From Moniliella sp. 'wahieum' (taxonomy: Eukaryota): a DNA stretch of 64,000 nucleotides. The notes beneath the pieces were generated by a model, which had not been told where the DNA came from, did no database searches, and saw only the letters and a list, made by a program, of their open reading frames with translations. The stretch lies in NCBI GenBank assembly GCA_003971905.1, contig RSEE01000009.1:806001-870000 (forward strand), written 5' to 3'. Positions within the stretch are counted from its first letter, which is position 1. The number at the start of each line of letters is the position of its first letter. This document shows positions 17,264-59,338 of the stretch, piece after piece. The position numbers were made by a program, and so were the translations under genes.

Positions 17264-18938
17264 ATGGGTACCCACCACCTCCAAGCCTGTGACGGCAGAG
17301 ACCGAGAAGGCAGCCTTCACCTCCTCGGCCCCTGCTCCCGAAGCCGCTGCTATGCACCACGCTGCCGACCGGTTGGCGCGCATCCAGGCCGAGACGACGG
17401 CTCGGCAAACCTCATCTGCAGCCCCTTCAGCCAACATTACCCCCAAGAATGTCAAGGATTGGCAGGAGGATGCCTTTGCTGTACGTCTTGCCTTGCTTTG
17501 TTTCTTTTCGTGCGCCCAGAACAACACGAAGAGCGCTCCTGCTAACCTCCCTCTCGCCTTGTCTAGGAGCCGGCCGCACGTCTGGCGGCACTGACGCTGC
17601 ACAATGCCAACATCCCCGACTCGCTCCACTCGCGTAAGACAGAAATTGAGCACAACCAGATCTACAACCTCCAAGTGCCCATCCTTCCTAAGACCGTGAC
17701 CAACCAAAAGAGTTCTGGGCGGTGTTGGCTGTTTGCAACCACAAACCTGATCCGCCTCGAAGTGATTCGGCAGTTGGACATTAAGGACGCCGACTTTGAG
17801 CTGAGCCAGTCCTACCTCCACTTCTGGGACAAGCTTGAGAAGGCCAACTACTGGTTGGAAAATGCGATTGAGTTGGCGGACCGGTCGTGGGATGACCGGG
17901 AACTGAACTACCTCAGCAAGAACTTTAGCTCGGACGGTGGCCAGTTCAACATGGCAACCAACCTGGCGGTCAAGTATGGCATCTGCCCACAGAGCGTTTA
18001 TCCCGAATCCTTCAACAGCTCCAACACTGCCAAGATCACCTGGCTGACGACAGTTAAGTTGCGCGAGTTTGCGCAGGAGCTGCGCGATCTCAAGAAGGTG
18101 ACTGAGGAGCGGCTCAGTAGCAGTGTCGCCTCAGGCGTGATGACGCCCACACAGCGAGATGAGGCGGTGCTTGCGACGGTGCGAACCCACAAGGAGAAGC
18201 AGATGAAGGAGGTGTACCGCATGATGGCCATTGCGTATGGCGCACCGCCAGGCCCGCACGATGAGTTTACGTTTGAGTGGTACGACAGCAAGAACCGGTA
18301 CCAGTCGCTGACTACGACGCCATATGAGTTCCAAGTGAAGTACACTGGTACTTTACCGCCAAGGGCTGTGTCTCGCTTGTCCACGACCCACGCTACCCCG
18401 AGGACACGGTGATTACTGTGGACCGACTTGGAAATGTGTGGGATGGCCAGCCGGTCACCTACATCAACACGAGCGTCGAAGAAATGGAGCGGTTGGTGGT
18501 CAAGTCCATCAAGGCGGGCCACACGGTCTTTTTCGGGTGCGATGTGGGCCAGTTTAGCCACACGCCGAGTGGGATTATGGACACGGAGCTGTTTGACTAT
18601 GAGGCGGCATTTGGGGTCAAGCTGGGCTTGTCCAAGAAGGAGCGCTGGAGATGGGCGAGTCGCAAATGACGCATGCCATGTTGATTGACAAGGTGCATGT
18701 CGACCCGAAAACCGACACCCCGATCCGGTACGCAGTGCAGAACTCGTGGGGCGCACCGGGGGTGGGTAAGGATACAGGCTACATGTCCATGTCGCGCAAG
18801 TGGTTTGCCGAATTTACGTACCAGTGTGTCTTCCGCAAAGAGCTCCTCTCGCCCAAGCACCAAAAGCTGGCCGAGCGTGGCGTTGACGAGCATGCCATCC
18901 ACTTGCCCCCCTACGACCCAATGGGCGCGTTGGCCTAA
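17264..18938 (+). CDS. Bleomycin hydrolase / cysteine aminopeptidase (peptidase C1B)
   Basis: TNQKSSGRCWLFA (catalytic Cys), LSQSYLHFWDKLEKAN, DGGQ, FFGCDV, THAM (His), QNSWG (Asn), and C-terminal DPMGALA*. Confidence 0.93.
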
Positions 18939-38252: not shown

Positions 38253-38909
38253 ATGCCTCTTGTTGGTTCCAAGGCCCCCCTCTTCACCAAGGCTGCTGTC
38301 ATTGACGGCCAGATCTCGGAGGTCTCTCTCGAGAAGAACCTCAAGGCCGGCAAGTGGACCGTGCTCTCGGTATGTCCACTTCTATCCCGCCTCGGTCCTT
38401 GTGGGTATGCTTGCTGACCCGCCATGGCACTTCGTTCCCAGTTCTACCCCTGGCCTACACCTTCGTGTGCCCCACCGAGATGTGAGCTACGGTGCGGAGG
38501 GCAAGGCGTTCAAGGACCTGAACGCTGAGCTCCTGTACGCCTCGACCGACTCGGAGTTCACCCAGCTCGCCTGGGACCAGGCCAAGACCTCGGACGGTGG
38601 CCTGGGTGGCGTGTCGAAGAACGTGGCTCTGGTGGCCGACACGAACCACAGCCTGTCGCGCGACTACGACGTGCTTCTCCCTGACCAGGGCGTTGCGCTG
38701 CGTGGCACCTTTATCATTGACCCGCAAGGCATCATCCAGCATGCCACCATCAACAACGCCCCCGTTGGCCGCAACGTGCAGGAGACCCTCCGTCTGCTGG
38801 AGGCGTTCCAGTTCACTGCCGAGCACGGCGAGGTCTGCCCTGCCGGTTGGCAGAAGGCGCGGACACCATCGACACCAAGAACGCCACGGCCTACTTCTCG
38901 AAGCACTAA
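38253..38909 (+). CDS. TSA1: Typical 2-Cys peroxiredoxin (Tsa1/Tpx1 type)
   Basis: FYPLAYTFVCPTE (peroxidatic Cys), STDS, ALRGTFIIDP, VGRN, GEVCPAGW (resolving Cys). Intron GTATGT..GCTGAC..CAG at about 38370-38441. TATAAAA at about 38184. Confidence 0.9.
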
Positions 38910-46070: not shown

Positions 46071-46756
46071 ATGCTCGTCAAGGCTCCTCTCCGCTTGACC
46101 TCGCTCGCCACCCAGCCCCACCTCCGCCTTCTGGCCGGCGGGTCGTCCCGCTCGTTTGCTACGTGTGCGTACTCCTCTTCTTGGCGCCCTGTGCTGCATC
46201 GCGCGTGCGTGGGACCGATGCTCCCTGGCCGTGGCAGTGGTGCTGACTTGTGTGTGTTTTGTGGTGCTGCAGCGGCGTACCGCCAAGTCCAGGCCAGCCA
46301 AGTCCAGCCCGTCCTACATCAAGGGCACGGTGAACGAGCCGACTGAGTACCCGCCTTCGAACGCCGCGCATGGCTCGTACGAGTGGACGTTTGAGCGGGT
46401 GGTGGCCCTGTCGCTCGTGCCGCTGATTTCGGCATCGACAGTGAAGCATGGCGCATCGGGTGCGCTGGATGGCGCGCTGGCTTTGGGGCTGATCATTCAC
46501 TCGCACTACGGTGTGAGCCAGGTGCTGTTTGACTACTTCCCCAAGCGCAAGACGCCCAAGCTGGCCGCCTTGTTGACCTGGACCTGGCGCGCCACCTCGG
46601 CCGCCGCGCTGTACGGCCTGTATGGTACGTTGTCCCTCTCTTGGTGTGAGGTCGTCGACCCAATCTGACATGTGTTTGCGTTTGCGTTGCTGCTCAGAAC
46701 TCAACACCAACGACATTGGCCTGACGGAGACGATTGCGCGTGCGTGGACGGCGTAA
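46071..46756 (+). CDS. SDH4: Succinate dehydrogenase cytochrome b small subunit (CybS)
   Basis: Presequence MLVKAPLRLTSL, GTVNEP..HGSYEWTFER, IHSHYG..DY, GLY/ELNTNDIGLTE. Two introns (about 46165-46272 and 46625-46697). Confidence 0.88.
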
Positions 46757-47708: not shown

Positions 47709-49097
47709 ATGTCCCATCTCCCTGCTACCGCCGCCTCTGGCGTCCAGGAGGGCCGCGCCAGCGTGGTCCTCGGTGCGCAATGGGGTGACGAGGGCAAAGG
47801 TGAGTTCCTTCCCCTCCTCCTCGCTCGCCTCTGCTGACTGTCGCTTGGTTCTCCAGGCAAGCTTTGTGACATCCTTGCGGGTGCCATGGACGTGTGCGCT
47901 CGCTGTGCTGGCGGCAACAATGCCGGTCACACCATTGTGGCTCATGTGGGCCCCGACAAGGTCAAGACCAAGTTTGACTTTCACCTGCTGCCCTCGGGCC
48001 TGGTCAACCCCCGGTGCGCCGGCTTTATTGGTTCGGGGGTGGTAGTGCATGTGCCTTCGTTTTTCGCTGAGCTCGACACGCTGGAGAAGAAGGGCTTGGA
48101 GGTGAGTGGCCGTCTGTTTGTTTCGGACCGCGCCCACCTGGTGTTTGACTTTCATCAAGTCGTCGATGGCATGAAGGAAGTCGAGCTGGGAGGCAGCAGC
48201 ATTGGCACCACCAAGAAGGGCATTGGGCCAGCGTACGGTTCCAAGGCTTCCCGCTCGGGCCTGCGCGTGCATCACCTGTACGACCAAGAGTTGTTTGCAA
48301 CCAAGTTCCGCAACCTGGTCGAAGGCCGGTTCAAACGCTACGGTCACTTTGAGTACGACACGGAGGGAGAGATTGCGCGCTACCGTGCCTTTGCTGAGCG
48401 CCTGCGCCCGTTTGTTGTCGACGGCGTCACCTTTATCCACACTGCGTTGGCACAGAACCGCCGTGTGTTGGTCGAGGGTGCCAACGCGTTGATGCTTGAC
48501 ATTGACTACGGCACGTACCCCTACGTTACTTCGTCTTCCACAGCGATCGGTGGCGTGTGCACTGGCTTGGGCATCCCCCCCAAACTGGTGGGCAAGACGA
48601 TTGGTGTGATGAAGGCCTACACCACGCGCGTCGGTTCCGGTCCCTTCCCCACCGAGCAGCTCAACGAGGTTGGAGTTCACTTGCAAGAGGTGGGTGCCGA
48701 GTGGGGCGTGACGACCGGCCGTCGTCGCCGGTGCGGATGGCTGGACTTGGTGGTGATGAAGTACTCGCACATGATCAATGGCTACGACAGCCTCAACCTC
48801 ACCAAGCTCGACATTCTCGACGACTTGGAGGAAATCAAGGTGGGCGTGGCGTATTACCACGATGGCGTCGAACTCGCCTCGTTCCCTGCCGACTTGGAGT
48901 TGCTGGCGCAGGTGGAAGTCAAGTACGAGACGCTGCCCGGGTGGAAATCGGACATTTCCAAGATCACCCAGTACGACGAGCTGCCGACCAACTGCAAGAA
49001 GTACATTGAGTTCTGTGAGAAGTTCCTCGGCGTGCCCATTGAGTACATTGGCGTTGGCCCTGGCCGCGAGAGCATGATCCACCGGCAGCAGGCGTAA
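47709..49097 (+). CDS. ADE12: Adenylosuccinate synthetase
   Basis: [13 protein letters not shown] (across an intron at about 47800-47856), [47 protein letters not shown]. Confidence 0.97.
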
Positions 49098-51056: not shown

Positions 51057-54000
51057 ATGGTCGCCGTCCGCGTCGACGCCCTGCCCGTGCAGCCCCAGCA
51101 ACCCGACCTCAACGACCCCCTTGTCGCCCCCCCGCGGGGCGACCACCCCGAGGTGACCACCTCGGCCAACCTGGATGCCAATGGCTTCCACCATGTCGTC
51201 CGCTCGCAAGCTTCCTACGGTGGCGATGCGCTCCCTGCCGCCCAAGGCCTTTACGACCCTGAGAACGAAAAGGACAGCTGCGGGGTGGGCTTTATCTGCC
51301 ACATCAAGGGCAAGCCCAGCCACAAGATTGTGTCCGACGCCAAGTTTGTCCTGTGCAACATGACCCACCGCGGCGCCACTGGTGCCGACGCGCGCGATGG
51401 TGACGGCGCTGGGTGCATGACTGGTATCCCCGACTCGTTTTTCCGCCGCGAGCTCGAGATGGACTTTGGCATCACCCTTCCCGCCGAAGGCCAATACGCG
51501 GTGGGCAACGTCTTTTTCACCCCCAAGGATGACCGCCTGCGTGCGGACCACCAAAAGATCTTTGAGTCGGTCGCTGACTCGGTAGGGCTGCGTGTCCTGT
51601 GCTGGCGGAACGTTAGTGTCGACAACTCCATCCTTGGTCCCGCCGCGCTCAGCAAGGAGCCCAAGATCCTCCAGCCCTTTGTTGTGGCCACGGAGCACTA
51701 TGGCGCCGGATCGGCGCCGGCACAGACAGAGGCTCCGTTTGACGAGAAGAACTTTAATCGCCAATTGTACGTGCTGCGCAAGTCGGCCACTCACAAGATT
51801 GGTTTGGCCAACTGGTTCTACATCTGCTCTCTCTCCCCGAGCAACATTGTCTATAAGGGTCAGCTCGCACCCCGGCAGGTGTACGACTACTATTATGATC
51901 TGCTCAACGCACGCTACGAGTCGCACTTTGCCTTAGTCCATTCCCGTTTCTCTACCAACACTTTCCCTTCTTGGGACCGTGCCCAGCCGATGCGGTGGGC
52001 GGCCCACAATGGTACGCATGCCCCTCTTCGCCTTGGTCTGCTTCCTTGTTACTGACTCCCTGATGCATAGGCGAAATCAACACGATCCGCGGTAACAAAA
52101 ACTGGATGCGTGCCCGCGAGGGCATGTTGCGTTCGGAAGTGTTTGGCAACGACCTTGACCGCCTCTACCCGATTATCGAACCTGGAGGATCCGACTCGGC
52201 TGGGTTTGACAATGTACTGGAGCTTCTGGTCGTCAATGGTGTCTTGACGCTGCCCCAAGCGATCATGCTTCTTATTCCTGAGGCTTGGCAAGGCAAACAA
52301 GACCATATGGAGCCCGAAAAGGTTGCCTTTTACCGCTGGGCGGCTTGTATGACGGAGCCTTGGGACGGGCCCGCCCTGTTTGCCTTCTCGGATGGTCGCT
52401 TCTGTGGTGCCAACTTGGACCGCAACGGCTTGCGGCCGTGCCGGTATGTCATCACTGACGACGACATTATGATTTGCGCGTCGGAGGTGGGCACCATCCA
52501 CATTGATCCGGCGACGGTGTTGGCCAAAGGCCGGCTGCAACCCGGGCGCATGCTCTTGGTGGATACCAAGGAGGGCCGCCTGGTCGACGACAAGGAGCTC
52601 AAGATGACTACTGCCCAGTCGGCCGACTTTGCTGCCTGGCTCGAAGCGCAGCTACTGCATCTCCCTGACATTTGTCGCCGCACCCGGGCCAACGCGCCGA
52701 TCACGGCCGAGCTCGACAGCACCACCCTTAGTACCGATCCGCGGATGAAGGCGTTTGGGTACACCAACGAGCAGATTAGTCTGTTAATGCTCCCCTGGGC
52801 ACGTCTGGCAAAGAGGCGCTGGGCTCGATGGGCAACGATGCGCCCCTGGCGTGCATTGCCGATGCGCCTCGGCAGGTCTACGAGTACTTCCGCCAGCTGT
52901 TTGCTCAGGTTACCAACCCGCCCATTGACCCAATCGCGAAGCGGTCGTCATGTCGCTGGAAACGTATGTCGGTCCCGAGGGCAATCTGCTGGAGATGAAC
53001 CCCAAGCAGGCTCACCGCCTCTTGCTCCCATCGCCCATGCTAAAGATTGAGCAATGAATGCCATCAAGCGCATCCACGAGGCTGTCGACGACTGGAAGAC
53101 AAAGGTGATTGACATTACGTTCCCCAAGGTCGATGGCATTGCGGGCTACGAACGCACGATCGACCGGATTGTGCAGAGGCTAGCGCGGCGATTTCGGAAG
53201 GCTACACCATTGTCGTTCTGTCTGACCGTGCGGTGAGCGAGGACCGCGTCGCCTTGAGCTCACTCGTTGCCGTCGGTGGTGTGCATCATCACCTGATCCG
53301 CAACAAGGCTCGTACCAAGGTGGCTTTGATGATTGAGACGGCCGAGGCTCGGGAGGTGCATCACTTCTGTGCCTTGACGGGCTATGGTGCCGACGCCATT
53401 TGCCCCTGGCTGGCGATTGAAGTGATGGCCAAGGTGCACCGCGAGGGCTTGATCAAAGAGGACATTACGCTCGAGACGGCTGTCGAGAACTGGCTGCACG
53501 GCGTGGATGGCGGGATTCTTAAAGTGATGTCCAAGATGGGCATTTCGACGCTTGCGTCCTACAAGGGTGCCCAAATCTTTGAGGCACTGGGCGTGGACAA
53601 CTCGGTGATCGATCGCTGCTTTGCCGGTACGGCCAGCCGCATCAAGGGTGTCACGTTTGAGCTGTTGGCCATGGATGCATTTGAATTCCACAACCGCGGT
53701 TGGCCTTCTCAGGAAACGGTCCTGCCCCCCGTTTTGGCCGAGAGTGGCGAATACCACTGGCGCGATGGTGGTGAGGCTCACGTCAACGATCCCGTGTCGA
53801 TTGCCAATCTGCAGGATGCGGCGCGGGAAAAGAATCAGTTTGCCTGGGACCAGTATAGCAAGCAGGCCACCCAGTCCGTCAAGGCCACCGCCCTGCGTGG
53901 CTTGCTCGACTTTGACTTTACCAAGGCGCGCCCCATCCCCGTGGACCAGGTCGAGCCGTGGACCGAGATTGTGCAGCGATTCTGCACTGGCGCCATGTCG

Positions 54001-57000
54001 TACGGTTCCATCTCGATGGAGGCCCACTCGGCTTTGGCGATTGCCATGAACCGTCTGGGTGGCAAGTCCAACACGGGTGAAGGGGCGAAGACGCCGAGCG
54101 TTCCATTCCGCTTCCCAATGGGGACTCGCTCCGTTCGAAGATCAAGCAGGTCGCTTCCGGCCGGTTTGGTGTCACGTCCAACTACCTTGCTGACAGCGAC
54201 GAGCTGCAGATCAAGATGGCGCAGGGGGCCAAGCCTGGTGAGGGCGGTGAGTTGCCTGGCCACAAGGTGTCGCCATCGATTGCGCGTACGCGTCACTCGA
54301 CCGCGGGTGTCGGTCTCATTTCCCCCCCTCCTCATCATGACATTTACTCGATTGAGGACTTGAAGCAGCTGATCTACGACCTCAAGTGCGCCAACCCTCG
54401 CGCGCGTGTGAGCGTCAAGCTTGTATCCGAAGTGGGTGTCGGCATTGTGGCGGCGGGTGTGGCCAAGGCCAAGGCGGACCATGTGCTGGTCTCGGGTCAC
54501 GACGGTGGTACGGGTGCGTCGCGCTGGACTGGCATCAAGTACGCCGGTCTTCCCTGGGAGTTGGGTCTGGCCGAGACGCACCAGACATTGGTGCTCAACG
54601 ACCTGCGTGGCCGCGTGACGGTGCAGACTGACGGTCAACTTCGCACTGGTCGCGACTTGGCCATCGCTACGCTCCTAGGTGCCGAAGAGTATGGCTTTGC
54701 CACCACGCCCCTCATTGTGATGGGCTGCATCATGATGCGCAAGTGCTTGGGTGTGGACACGCTGGTGCGCACGCTGGGCGGTGCGACGAAACGCATTGGC
54801 GATATTGCCCTTGGGACACCTGTTGGACGACAGCAACAACCCTGTGCTTGTCATGTCGGTGGGCGATGTGGAAACGGGGGAGATGTACCAGGTTGCATAC
54901 ACTCTTGATGGCGAGAAGCGCTTTGAGTGCACGCCGGACCACATTCTTTCTTTGGCAGCCGTGGGCGTGGAGCCCACGATGGAGAACAAGACGGTCGAGT
55001 TTTACAAGCGCTGCGTGTCGGGCAAAAAGCTGGACCAGGCGGCCGAGCACGCGCCTCGTGTATGATGCACGACCTTGTAACTCTCGGCGATGTCCAAGAC
55101 TTGGACCGCGAAGATGAGGTGGATGAGGAGATTGGGTATGTTATTGGATCTTGTCTCGTGCAGCGAAGGCGTACTGACTCGCATATACTTTAGCTCTGAG
55201 ATGGTTACCAAGGAGTTGCTCAGCGGGCACCGTCACCGTGCCCACGCGACGGGCGCGTCGCCATTCGACCCTCGCAGTTGCGTCCATGACAAGGAAACCG
55301 TCCACGTTTCCTTTGACCTTGGCGTCGCCATGCCCGAGCTTGAGAGCGACCACGGCTCGGACGCTTCGTCGACGGCCCCTGGCACCCCAGCCATCGAGCC
55401 TGCGGCCGACACGGTGGCCCTTGGCCCGGTGGATGAACTGGTGTTGAGTGAAACTGCCAAGGCACCTGCGCCCGTTCGTGCCACCGAGGAGCCCTTCCTC
55501 CGTGTTGGGGCTCAACTGCAAGGCCGCCTTGCCCTTCTCAAAGAGAAGATCCAGGAGGCAGAGTGCTCCTGCGGTGGCCTGCACAAGGTCTCGCTTGAGC
55601 TGGCGTCCGAAGAGCAGGCGCAACTGGTTAACAGCCTCCTCTTCTCTGAGCACCACCACCTTGTTGAGCCCAGCCTCGTTTTGGATGGCGATCGGTTCGA
55701 GGCGACAGCTGAGGACCTTCTCAACCACTCCCACCCCAAGCTCCGTCTTTTCCGCCCTGCCAACCAGGCCGAGTTGGGGCTGGCGCAGGACGATGCGTAC
55801 TTTGTTGGTGCCTGGTTGGGCGATGGAGATGCCCACCGGGCCACGCTGGCCGCTTCGGATGCGGAAATGCTGGTGTGGTTGCACAAGTATGTGGAACAGC
55901 TGAACGCGACGCGTCCCCAGGGCGCGACCGAACTCAAGGTAGTCAGCCGGAAGGTGACTGCGGTTGGGGACCTGGTCGGATCCAATGCGTTTGCTCGGGC
56001 CGACATGTTTAAGCACACGGTTCTTGCCCAAGACTGGAACCCGCTGGAGGCGAAGCTTACCGACCTAGGCCTTCTCGGCACCAAGGAGCGCCGCATCCCC
56101 ATTGAGGCCTTCCCTTCGGCTGAGGGCAAGCGGGCCCTGTTGGCTGGTCTGCTCGACACGGACGGATCCTACCTCCGTTCCAGTGGCCAGTACGTCTTTG
56201 CTCAGGCCGAGGCCACATGGGGCTGGTAGAGGATGTGGCGTTGCTGGCCAAGGAACTGGGCATCTGCACCAGTGGTGTGGCCATGGAGCCGGGGGCTTCT
56301 GTGGTGACGCTGAGTGGACCCGGCCTGGCGCAACTGCAGCCCTACTTGCTGTACGAGCGGAAGCGCATGCCTGCGGTGGCGAGCGACATGGAGGTCGCGC
56401 CTTTGTGCTGACCAAGTTGGCGGGCGAGCGGGAATACCGTGGGGTGGAGGTCTCGGGCGGACACTTCCAGCTGGAGGATGGCTTGGTGGCGCATAACTGC
56501 CACCTCAACACGTGCCCAGTTGGCATTGCCACTCAAGACCCCGAGTTGCGGGAGAAGTTTGCCGGCCAGCCCGAGCATGTGATCAACTTCTTCTATTACC
56601 TTGCCGAGGAGCTGCGTGGGATCATGGCCAAGCTGGGGATGCGTACCATCAACGAGATGGTCGGTCGCTCGGAGCTGCTCAAGGCTGACTATACTGGACG
56701 CAACGTCAAAGCATCCAAGCTGGATCTGAGCGCCATTCTCAAGCCTGCGCATGAACTGCGCCCCGGTGCAGCGACGTACAAGGTGCGTCAGCAGGACCAC
56801 CGTCTCTACGTTCGGATGGACAACAAGTTCATCTCGGAAGCCGAGCCGGCTCTGATGGAAGGTCTGCCCGTTCAAGTTGACTGCGAGGTGGTCAACACGG
56901 ACCGTGCGCTGGGTGCCACCTTGTCGTACCGTGTGTCTAAGTTGTACGGCGAGGAAGGTTTGGCACGAGACACGATCCACATCAATGCCAAGGGCTCGGC

Positions 57001-59338
57001 TGGCCAATCGTGTGGTGCATTCCTTGCCCCCGGTATCACGCTCGAGCTCGAGGGCGACGCGAACGACTATGTCGGAAAGGGCATGTCGGGTGGCCGTCTG
57101 ATCATCTACCCGCCCAAGAACTCGGCGTTCAAGGCAGAGGAGAACATTTTGATTGGCAACACGTGTTTGTACGGCGCGACGACAGGTAATGCCTACTTCC
57201 GTGGCATTGCGGCCGAGCGCTTTGCGGTGCGCAACTCGGGCGCGCATGCGGTGGTGGAAGGTGTGGGAGACCACGGGTGCGAGTACATGACGGGTGGCCG
57301 GGTCGTGGTGCTGGGCAGCACTGGCCGCAACTTTGCCGCCGGGATGAGTGGTGGCATTGCGTATGTGCTGGACATGAACCGCGACTTCTACTCGCGGTGC
57401 AACACGGAGATGGTGGAGCTGGGTCCGGTCAAGGAGCCTCACGAGATTGCCGAGCTGCGCAACCTGATTGAGAACCACCGTCACTACACGGGCTCGACGG
57501 TTGCCGAACATGTGATTCGCGACTTCCACCATCTTTTGCCTCGCTTTGTGCGGGTGATGCCGTACGACTATAAGCGTGTGCTCGAGGAGGAGGCAGCCAA
57601 GGCGGCGGCCGAGAAGAAGCGCTCGAGCCATGTGGACTTGCTCGGAACCCTGTCGCGGCACAGCTCCCAGGTCAGTCTGTTGGAGGAAGAGCAAGCAGCA
57701 GGAGAAGGCGGCCGCCGCCAAGGCTGAGCCGGCCGAAGTGGACATTGAAGATGCGCTGCTGGATGCCGAGAAGGCCAAGACGGCGCTGGCCAAGCTGGAC
57801 AAGTTGCGTGGATTCAAAAAGTACCGTCGTCGTGCGGAAAAGTACCGTCAGCCCAACGTGCGCGCCAAGGACTTTAAGGAACTGTCCAACCGCCTGACCG
57901 ATGCCGAGCTCAAGGTGCAGACCGCGCGCTGCATGGACTGTGGTGTGCCCTTCTGCCAGTCGGACACGGGCTGCCCGATCAGCAATGTGATCCCCAAGTG
58001 GAACGACTTGGTGTTCAACGGGCGCTGGGAAGAAGCCTACTGGAAGCTCATGTCTACCAACAACTTCCCCGAGTTTACCGGCCGCGTGTGCCCCGCGCCT
58101 TGCGAAGGCGCGTGTGTGCTGGGCATCATTGAGTCGCCGGTGGGCATCAAGACGGTGGAGCGGGCGATTATTGACAAGGCGTTTGAGCTGGGCCTGGTCA
58201 AGCCCCAGCCGCCGGTGCACCGGACGGGCAAGACTGTGGCCATTGTGGGTTCGGGTCCGGCCGGGATGGCGTGTGCGGACCAGCTGAACAAGGCGGGTCA
58301 CTCGGTCACGGTCTTTGAACGCGCTGATCGTCCGTTTGGTTTGGCCATGTACGGTATTCCCAACATGAAGCTGGACAAGGGGGTGGTCATGCGTCGTGCC
58401 GAGCTGCTGCAGGCCGAGGGTGTGGACATCCAATGTGGCGTGGAGGTGGGACGGGACGTGGATGCGGCCGAGCTCAAGGAACAGTTTGACGAGCTGGTCT
58501 TTGCCACTGGCGCCACCTGGCCGAGGGACCTGCGTGTGGACGGACGCGATGCCAACGGGGTTCTGTTTGCGATGGACTTTTTGGGCGCCAACACCAAGTC
58601 GCTGTTGGATTCGGGGCTGCAGGACGGAAACTTCTACAATGCCAAGGGCAAGAACGTGGTTGTCATTGGCGGTGGCGACACGGGCAATGACTGCATTGGT
58701 ACCTCGGTCGGCACGCGCACGGCATCGGTGGTCAACTTTGAGTTGTTGCCCCAGCCGCCCGCGTCGCGCGCCGCGACAACCCTTGGCCCCAGTGGCCCCG
58801 CATCTTCCGCACTGACTATGGTCACACTGAGGTGACGGACCACTATGGCCAAGACCCGCGTCACTACCAAATCTCGACGACCAAGTTTGAAAAGGACGAG
58901 GAGAACAATCTGGTTGCCGTGCACACGGTGGAGGTCGCCTGGGAGAAGGACGCGAGCGGCAAGTGGCAGATGAACAAGGTGCCCGGTACGGAGAAGCGGT
59001 GGCCGTGTGAGTTGTGCCTCTTGGCACTGGGTTTCCTCGGCCCAGAGAATGAGGCGATCAAGTCGTTGGAGCTCAAGCAGGATGCTCGCTCCAACATCTT
59101 GGCCGCCGACTCGAAGGGCGCCAGTCCCTTCCGTACCTCGGTGCCGGGCGTGTGGGCGTGTGGCGACGCTCGTCGCGGCCAATCGCTGGTGGTGTGGGCT
59201 ATCCACGAAGGTCGGGCATGCGCGCAGGCGATTGACGAGCAGTTGCATGGTACCAGCCGCCTGCCCTGGGCCGGCTCCATCCCCAAGCGCACTTACCCTT
59301 GGACGAGCAAGGAGGTAGAGTTGCTCCAGCAGGCATAA
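51057..59338 (+). CDS. GLT1: NADH-dependent glutamate synthase (fused alpha+beta subunits), intein-containing precursor
   Basis: Propeptide then [32 protein letters not shown] (intron 52012-52070), [36 protein letters not shown]^[52 protein letters not shown]. Confidence 0.97.
54744..56497 (+). mobile_element. Intein with a LAGLIDADG homing endonuclease in GLT1 (about 567 aa after repair)
   Basis: Interrupts the conserved [14 protein letters not shown]. Block [80 protein letters not shown] followed by Cys+1. Confidence 0.93.
55136..55193 (+). other. Putative 58-nt spliceosomal intron within the intein coding sequence
   Basis: Donor GTATGT, branch site TACTGAC (55172-55178), acceptor TAG. 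Removing it joins ...DEVDEEIG to SEMVTKELL... in frame. Confidence 0.75.

Follow-up and report, generated by a model that had tools for sequence, protein, structure and literature searches.

What interrupts the GLT1 gene in this stretch of fungal DNA, and does the broken reading frame of the interruption mean that it has decayed? The stretch, which we call the window, comprises 64,000 nt of contig RSEE01000009.1 (positions 806,001 to 870,000; Moniliella sp. 'wahieum'), and its GLT1 gene, which encodes NADH glutamate synthase (GOGAT), carries a large insert with the anatomy of an intein. Our analysis itself establishes the anatomy of this insert, its homology, its fold, the placement of its host and the background error rate of the assembly. 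We consider it quite likely that the insert is a genuine full-length class 1 intein of the known GLT1 (GLTi-a) family, residing in GLT1 of an Ustilaginomycotina basidiomycete, that its frame breaks are assembly errors and that it has long been resident. Its probable internal intron is the only unusual feature of this intein. A broader reading, in which a spliceosomal intron shared with a second species splits the open reading frame (ORF) of the intein, RNA splicing is nested within protein splicing and the element is an old, vertically kept resident of the Ustilaginomycotina lineage, is to our mind evenly poised between right and wrong.

Pfam orders the domains of GLT1 as GATase_2, Glu_syn_central, Glu_synthase, GXGXG, Fer4_20 and Pyr_redox_2, and the Glu_synthase domain is split at 54744-56497 by 1754 nt lying exactly between GCIMMRK and CHLNTCP, with the extein flanks matching Glu_synthase profile positions 116-319 and 316-368. 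The first codon of the insert is TGC (Cys, 54744), the last two are CAT AAC (His-Asn, 56492-56497) and the extein resumes with TGC (Cys+1) at 56498. This site is uninterrupted in intein-less GLT1 genes, namely P0002, P0006 and 102 of the 199 stored GLT1 sequences, a sample biased by the length filter of the search; the empty site reads ATGATGCGCAAG/TGCCACCTCAAC (a slash marks a junction here and below). Of the three Cys residues that we take to be the 3Fe-4S cluster ligands of glutamate synthase, the first and second flank the insertion point; if this assignment is right, GOGAT activity should depend wholly on splicing of the intein.

The insert is not a single reading frame (1754 mod 3 = 2). 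It is read in six stretches (54744-54815, 54817-55059, 55062-55135, 55194-56208, 56211-56402 and 56402-56497), which together hold no stop among the 562 sense codons counted. The original prediction, made from the letters alone, was of a full-length GLT1 intein; the intein is indeed complete, but its ORF is broken, and reading it takes four single-base frame corrections and the removal of a predicted 58-nt intron. After these corrections the insertion is in frame and the features of a class 1 intein are present: an N-terminal Cys, TxxH, and His-Asn followed by Cys. Blocks A, B, C, E, F and G, together with the CxCGG/HHHL.DP region, align in register with seven homologous inteins, and the C-terminal splice end reads ..GLVAHN/C at 56480-56500. 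GAWLGDG lies at 55807-55827 and WLGDGD at 55813-55830, both in the first LAGLIDADG motif, and LLDTDG in the second (56149-56166). Across 30 aligned family members, the window included, D210 and G211 (motif 1) and D323 and G324 (motif 2) are invariant; the catalytic Asp positions are joined in this by six other columns, and C126, A142, L149 and P159 of the CxCGG region are nearly invariant. The region itself, between the splicing and endonuclease domains, is predicted from its sequence to be functional. D210 and D323 presumably correspond to PI-SceI residues D218 and D326. The prediction was right about the 1754-nt insert with its Cys start and its His-Asn end before Cys+1; splicing blocks A, B, F and G are present, as it had said, and the two LAGLIDADG helices lie where it had put them; both catalytic Asp residues are kept, as it had claimed, in line with GDG and DxDG of PI-SceI.

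An exhaustive phmmer search with a 344-aa piece of the intein (55195-56226) returned 111 proteins at E <= 1e-3, of which 26 reached E <= 1e-10. LAGLIDADG_3 and/or Hom_end is present at E <= 1e-3 in 23 of the best 40 relatives, many of these matches falling below Pfam's own cut-off. The top matches P0121, P0123, P0124 and P0127 are GLT1 inteins by their flanks (MRK/C ... N/CHL); the first three keep MRK/C...N/CHLNT, P0363 and P0368 extend from the site as far as ..HN, with CHL next, and these five share with P0450 the same insertion point and identical flanks. Many GLT1 N-terminal ORFs (P0357-P0370) enter the same kind of intein after RK and all fall within the ascomycete clade of the N-extein tree. 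The N-terminal piece of the window intein is 31-47% identical to GLT1 inteins (E down to 1e-20), and identity to family members other than P0001, an intact relative described below, is 30-47% and never above 47%. A family profile of eight rows, three of them window pieces, matches PI-SceI/VMA1 (E about 1e-13) and, along its N-terminal 75 positions, the gp41-1 intein (7.6e-4), and a window piece alone matches PI-SceI at 6e-4 across both motifs. In an AlphaFold model, the blocks covering residues 201-330 reach a mean predicted local distance difference test score (pLDDT) of 84-98, and a Foldseek search with this model, whose endonuclease piece lacks its last strands owing to frame break 3, ranked PI-SceI best (5e-6), followed by I-DmoI and E-DreI (0.03-0.09) and the TliVMA intein. 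When metagenomes were scanned with the same piece, 599 stretches fitted the pattern, none of which encodes a relative.

Inteins of the same family also occur in Sel1-repeat proteins (..WYKRA/CLSPETMVRT...TVVHN/CTLGD..) and in a kinesin motor domain (..TVVHN/CDSMSG..), as seen in P0129, P0139, P0235 and P0134, and neither host appears in the accessible part of the Green 2018 table of nuclear intein hosts. These members nest in the intein tree, so that the GLT1 intein family is not limited in a strict sense to a single host gene. Another of the top phmmer matches, the Lipomyces tetrasporus protein XP_056041602.1 (P0125; 'DOD-type homing endonuclease domain-containing protein', 613 aa), has no extein flanks, aligns end to end with GLT1 inteins and ends in ..LVVYN; judged by this sequence, it may represent an intein that was annotated as a gene in its own right.

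The host is an Ustilaginomycotina basidiomycete, a placement that rests on two observations: the adenylosuccinate synthetase (ADSS) of the window has its best named matches in Tilletiaria anomala (83%), Jaminaea (81%) and Ustilago, Sporisorium and Exobasidium (80-82%), and in the N-extein tree the window falls in a six-row clade with Ustilago loliicola, with a Shimodaira-Hasegawa-like approximate likelihood ratio test value (SH-aLRT) of 99. Both agree with the basidiomycete host that had been proposed. The accompanying premise, that the known GLT1 inteins come from ascomycetes, holds for the literature, so far as the accessible text of Green 2018 goes, but not for the databases, in which U. 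loliicola KAJ1033958.1 carries one. We found no paper describing a basidiomycete GLT1 intein in the literature searched. A family known from ascomycetes only, in the portion of the literature at hand, is thereby extended to Ustilaginomycotina, and such inteins are already present, unannotated, in public basidiomycete genomes.

Within the intein, the 58 nt at 55136-55193 are, on their sequence features, highly likely to be a spliceosomal intron. The predicted intron has a TACTGAC branch site 15 nt ahead of TTTAG, and its build is that of the 59-nt extein intron, where TTACTGAC is placed 14 nt upstream of CATAG. The pattern GTATGT-N20-50-CTGAC-N5-25-YAG occurs twice in the window against an expectation of 0.18, and its second occurrence is a verified peroxiredoxin intron that joins ..GKWTVLS and FYP... 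The GC content of the segment is 45%, compared with 62% in the intein exons, and once it is removed the frames on either side run on into each other through a Gly codon, no indel being required, giving the predicted spliced junction ..GAGATTGG/CTCTGAG... A single longer intron at 55060-55193 (134 nt, donor GTATGA) was rejected: it puts the downstream frame off by one and loses 25 residues shared with homologues. No report of an intron within a nuclear intein was found in the literature searched, which was covered in part, and the intron passages in the accessible text of Green 2018, Butler 2006 and Goodwin 2006 deal with extein introns only.

The intact relative P0001 is a 1393-aa ORF on a Logan contig that stays in one frame from the intron junction to the end of GLT1, running from ..SSEDVTQELLGGHRHR.. 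through both LAGLIDADG motifs and the C-terminal end of the intein into GLT1. It is 94% identical to the window in the extein and 72-74% in the intein, has the motif ADMFKHTV in common with it and is continuous at frame breaks 3 and 4. Similarity between the two begins abruptly at the predicted acceptor junction, and the called ORF of P0001 begins eight codons before the same junction with an unrelated pyrimidine-rich stretch (MLPLAFFYS/SEDV). Because the remainder of the P0001 gene is unbroken, the simplest reading is that it has an intron at the same place. The linker is 69% identical to that of P0001, the CxCGG region 71% and the endonuclease 75%, and only the C-terminal splicing block reaches 85%; selection can thus be seen on splicing but scarcely on the endonuclease. 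An overall intein identity of 72-74% points to long separate descent.

The four frame breaks of the intein are, by analogy with the genes around it, most likely assembly indel errors and not decay. The GLT1 extein has seven frame breaks of its own (near 52790, 52935, 53053, 53170, 54085, 57695 and 58790), at which the protein aligns with its relatives without interruption, so that an intron would not fit. A Peptidase_C1_2 gene has two (18352-18358 and 18642-18651), where the profile match continues in another frame only a few bases on (positions 252/254 and 353/351); a Pyr_redox_2 gene on the minus strand has one, at about 2250; the peroxiredoxin gene has two directly after its intron (38445-38490); and adenylosuccinate synthetase has none in 1257 nt. 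The background is thus 12 breaks in 10,376 nt of conserved coding sequence of the window outside the intein (1.16 per kb), and at this rate 1.96 would be expected in the 1696 nt of the intein, which has 4 (Poisson P = 0.14). Where the context of a break can be read, a single base is at stake in a homopolymer, as in GGGG for GGGGG at 54081 and TTT for TTTT at 56402. At break 2, if the 25 residues that follow are retained, block B and the H.H.G motif are 51 residues apart, compared with about 47 in P0121. The extein keeps 85-94% amino-acid identity to relatives, with no stop in the 1678 codons examined. Because conserved neighbouring genes are broken likewise and the intein rate does not significantly exceed the background, the breaks say nothing about decay of the intein. 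The window assembly looks unpolished and indel-prone, and a rate of about one indel per kb in coding sequence is a flag on its quality.

The history of the intein can be read from trees and composition. In the intein tree, the window, P0001 and Ustilago fall together (SH-aLRT 94-97 under LG+G4 and a mixture model), and the grouping held at 94-97 when rows were left out. Third codon positions have a GC content of 0.747 in the intein against 0.756 in the extein, with relative synonymous codon usage correlated between the two at r = 0.86. The six-row Ustilaginomycotina extein clade contains two carriers (the window and U. loliicola) and four non-carriers (P0356, P0361, P0377 and P0002); P0001, a third carrier, has no N-extein and hence lies outside that tree. 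Taken together, codon usage, grouping and the intron argue for long residence with repeated loss or re-homing, not for recent import, and the intein has probably long been present in this lineage. Among Ustilago GLT1 sequences that are almost identical, the site occurs in three states: an intein (KAJ1033958.1, P0450), an empty continuous site (P0453, 99% over 318 aa) and a break after GCIMM (P0361, 97.8% over 1208 aa).

Other accounts of the locus have to be weighed against this one. If there were no intron, 55136-55193 would be coding linker and the change of frame a fifth assembly indel, as might be expected where indels run at 1.16 per kb, frame B is open from 55081 and the linker region varies across the family. 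Against this stand the GTATGT donor, the TACTGAC 15 nt before TTTAG and the 58-nt length, which reproduce the build of the extein intron, the occurrence of the full pattern twice in the 64 kb where 0.18 is expected, its other case being a verified intron, the drop in GC to 45%, the joining of frames without an indel, and the way in which similarity to P0001 stops exactly at the predicted acceptor, where the P0001 ORF opens with the rest unbroken; we regard a coding linker as unlikely. Less probable again, and in our judgement very unlikely, is that the frame breaks are real, so that the intein and this GLT1 copy are a decaying pseudogene and glutamate synthase is dispensable or comes from another copy. 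Four breaks in 1.7 kb are double the density of other coding sequence, seven more lie in the extein itself, and GOGAT has been described as auxiliary in yeast (Fernandes 2016, in the text accessible to us), yet the unrelated conserved genes Peptidase_C1_2, Pyr_redox_2 and peroxiredoxin are broken in the same manner, the breaks sit at homopolymer runs, there are zero stops in 562 corrected intein or 1678 extein codons, and the extein is still 85-94% identical to its relatives.

The original prediction had favoured a recently active or horizontally acquired element, which here would mean recent transfer from an ascomycete and active homing. Its distribution in the six-row clade is patchy (two carriers to four non-carriers), an Ustilago GLT1 fragment 99% identical over 318 aa has an empty site, and the catalytic Asp residues are kept; but no intein from an ascomycete or from elsewhere exceeds 47% identity, the codon usage of the element matches the host, a host-type intron lies within the intein, a second species shares the intein at only 72-74% identity, the basidiomycete inteins group together and the homing endonuclease domain evolves about as fast as the linker. 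Recent acquisition is thus not borne out, host-like codon usage, the host-type intron and the grouping of basidiomycete inteins all speaking against it, and of the three alternatives we find it the most improbable. The reading that we prefer, a long-resident intein with frame breaks introduced by assembly, has points weighing against it in turn. Endonuclease identity to P0001 (75%) is near the value for the disordered linker (69%), which makes endonuclease activity doubtful. The N-terminal 130 residues of the window intein have no close relative (best 47%) and P0001 does not include that part; a homologue search aimed at the N-terminal ORF of the P0001 contig found none, with 47% again the best N-intein match. 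Indel density in the intein, at 2.4 per kb, is twice the background of 1.16 per kb, although not significantly so, and the frame breaks are judged to be errors by analogy with neighbouring genes. The grouping of the window and Ustilago inteins joins long branches, and the long-branch warning persists. In the window's own intein pieces, Pfam matches neither an intein family nor a LAGLIDADG family at E up to 10; the family assignment rests on homologues, PDB sequence matches and the fold search. Finally, what we take to be the block D lysine of PI-SceI is aligned with an Arg in the window.

If the long-resident intein is intact, expression would proceed by two kinds of splicing, all steps of which are proposed from the anatomy. 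After transcription of GLT1, two short spliceosomal introns, one in the extein and one in the intein, would be removed, and translation would yield a GOGAT precursor with an intein of roughly 565 residues between the Lys and the Cys of the site motif. The Hint domain would then cut out the intein and ligate the exteins by way of Cys1, the Thr and His of block B, the terminal His-Asn and Cys+1. The freed intein would be a PI-SceI-like double-motif LAGLIDADG endonuclease that, if still active, could cut empty GLT1 alleles and drive homing.

If the nested intron is real, active GOGAT, and the endonuclease with it, would require RNA splicing nested in protein splicing. Confirmation would make this a rare RNA intron within a protein intron, of a kind that ORF-based intein screens and gene predictors would miss or split. 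Coupled with introns 0-3 codons from the site in intein-less relatives, it would hint that introns colonise inteins and also block their target sites.

Introns at such positions appear, on sequence comparison, to be common in intein-less fungi. Unlike many of these (for example, P0356, P0361/P0452 and P0377), the window and P0001 have no intron next to the intein site. Among the 199 stored GLT1 ORFs and proteins, 79 depart from the consensus no more than 8 residues beyond GCIMM, 34 of them following CH and 19 following CHL. The surroundings of the gene are also shared: the order CybS (46099-46665), adenylosuccinate synthetase (47838-49094) and GLT1 is common to relatives, GLT1 and ADSS of U. 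loliicola (locus tags NDA16_000166 and NDA16_000167) lie together on one contig, and CybS and ADSS are fused in a gene model from Malassezia. Coordinates of the features are collected in Table 1.

Table 1. Positions in the window of the GLT1 gene, its intein and the associated introns and frame breaks
Feature	Position	Strand	Basis or remark
GLT1 (NADH glutamate synthase) gene, approximate ATG to stop	51057..59338	+	Pfam domains; tblastn with P0002, P0006 and P0001
Extein spliceosomal intron, 59 nt, GTACGC..TTACTGAC..CATAG	52012..52070	+	Skipped by protein alignment to relatives
N-extein end, GCIMMRK	54723..54743	+	Sequence reading
Intein-coding insert, 1754 nt; conceptual intein of ~565 aa after allowing for the intron and four indels	54744..56497	+	Sequence reading; family alignment
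Block A with Cys1	54744..54773	+	Aligned with CL..DTLVRT of P0121, P0123 and P0124
Frame break 1, one extra base at a GGG run	54813..54816	+	Frame shifts between ..IALG and HLLDD; homologues unbroken
Block B, CTPDH (TxxH)	54928..54942	+	CTPDH in 5 of the 6 homologues covering that part
Frame break 2, between ..EHAPR and MMHDLV..	55057..55064	+	Sequence reading; family alignment
Predicted spliceosomal intron in the intein, 58 nt, GTATGT..GTACTGAC..TTTAG, phase 2 in a Gly codon	55136..55193	+	Pattern; GC content; joining of frames
Low-complexity linker, predicted disordered	55195..55491	+	pLDDT <50, residues 1-93 of the modelled piece
CxCGG / EEQAQL / HHHLVEP region between splicing and endonuclease domains	55492..55764	+	Kept in 8 of 8 aligned inteins
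LAGLIDADG motif 1 (block C)	55795..55830	+	Asp codon 55822-55824; aligns with PI-SceI AYLLGLWIGDG
LAGLIDADG motif 2 (block E)	56137..56166	+	Asp codon 56161-56163; aligns with PI-SceI FLAGLIDSDG
Frame break 3, a GA? codon short of one base, between ..FAQA and GHMGLV..	56209..56211	+	P0001 continuous: FAQTADGHLGLV
Frame break 4, one T missing in a T run, between ..EVAP and FVLTKL..	56400..56404	+	P0001 continuous: LEVVPFELCKL
Blocks F and G	56435..56497	+	Aligned with YRA(I/V)EVSGG.FQL.NRLVVHN of homologues; profile matches the ..VVHNC end of PI-SceI
C-extein start, CHLNTCP (Cys+1)	56498..56518	+	Sequence reading
Peroxiredoxin intron, 72 nt, GTATGT..TGCTGAC..CCCAG	38370-38441		Joins ..GKWTVLS to FYPLAYTFVCPTE

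How, then, does the element compare with known systems? The PRP8 gene of Bathycoccus, in which an intein and a spliceosomal intron are alternative alleles at one codon (Monier et al. 2013, PMC3749507, in its accessible text), offers a parallel at the level of the site: in GLT1, intein-less relatives break 0-3 codons from the insertion point, and intein-bearing genes have no intron there. The two cases differ, as far as that text goes, in that the introns of GLT1 lie at several nearby positions, in a biased sample, and in that the intron inside the window's intein has no counterpart in Bathycoccus PRP8.

In architecture, the closest fold match is PI-SceI, the VMA1 intein of S. cerevisiae (PDB 1VDE, 1LWS and 1EF0), which has a Hint domain with a nested double-motif LAGLIDADG endonuclease, the architecture predicted for the window intein, and is matched in sequence at both motifs and at the ..HN/C end. 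The two differ in host gene and site and share about 20-24% identity, and the long disordered linker and CxCGG region of the window intein have no counterpart in the PI-SceI match.

By family, the element belongs with the ascomycete GLTi-a inteins of Debaryomyces hansenii, Meyerozyma (Pichia) guilliermondii, Candida carpophila, Podospora anserina, Phaeosphaeria nodorum and Fusarium fujikuroi, with which it shares its host gene and the signature CL..DT.VRT, CTPDH, CxCGG, HHHL.DP, DPYF.G.WLGDG, AGL..SDG and ..VVHN. The identical insertion site is shown by metagenomic members that keep their flanks, and the family homologues resemble the published GLTi of Debaryomyces, Pichia and Fusarium (Green 2018 supplement) in a comparison made by eye. 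At ~565 aa, the window intein is similar in size to the GLT1 inteins of Candida species, given as 553-607 aa in Table 1 of Fernandes 2016, the part of that paper drawn on here. It departs from the ascomycete members in the phylum of its host, in sequence (30-47% identity), in its predicted internal spliceosomal intron and in a shorter linker between the N-splicing and CxCGG regions. A further member is U. loliicola KAJ1033958.1 (P0450; 2811 aa, 'hypothetical protein'), which carries an unannotated 642-aa intein, 33% identical to that of the window in the endonuclease region, at the same GLT1 site and in the same subphylum.

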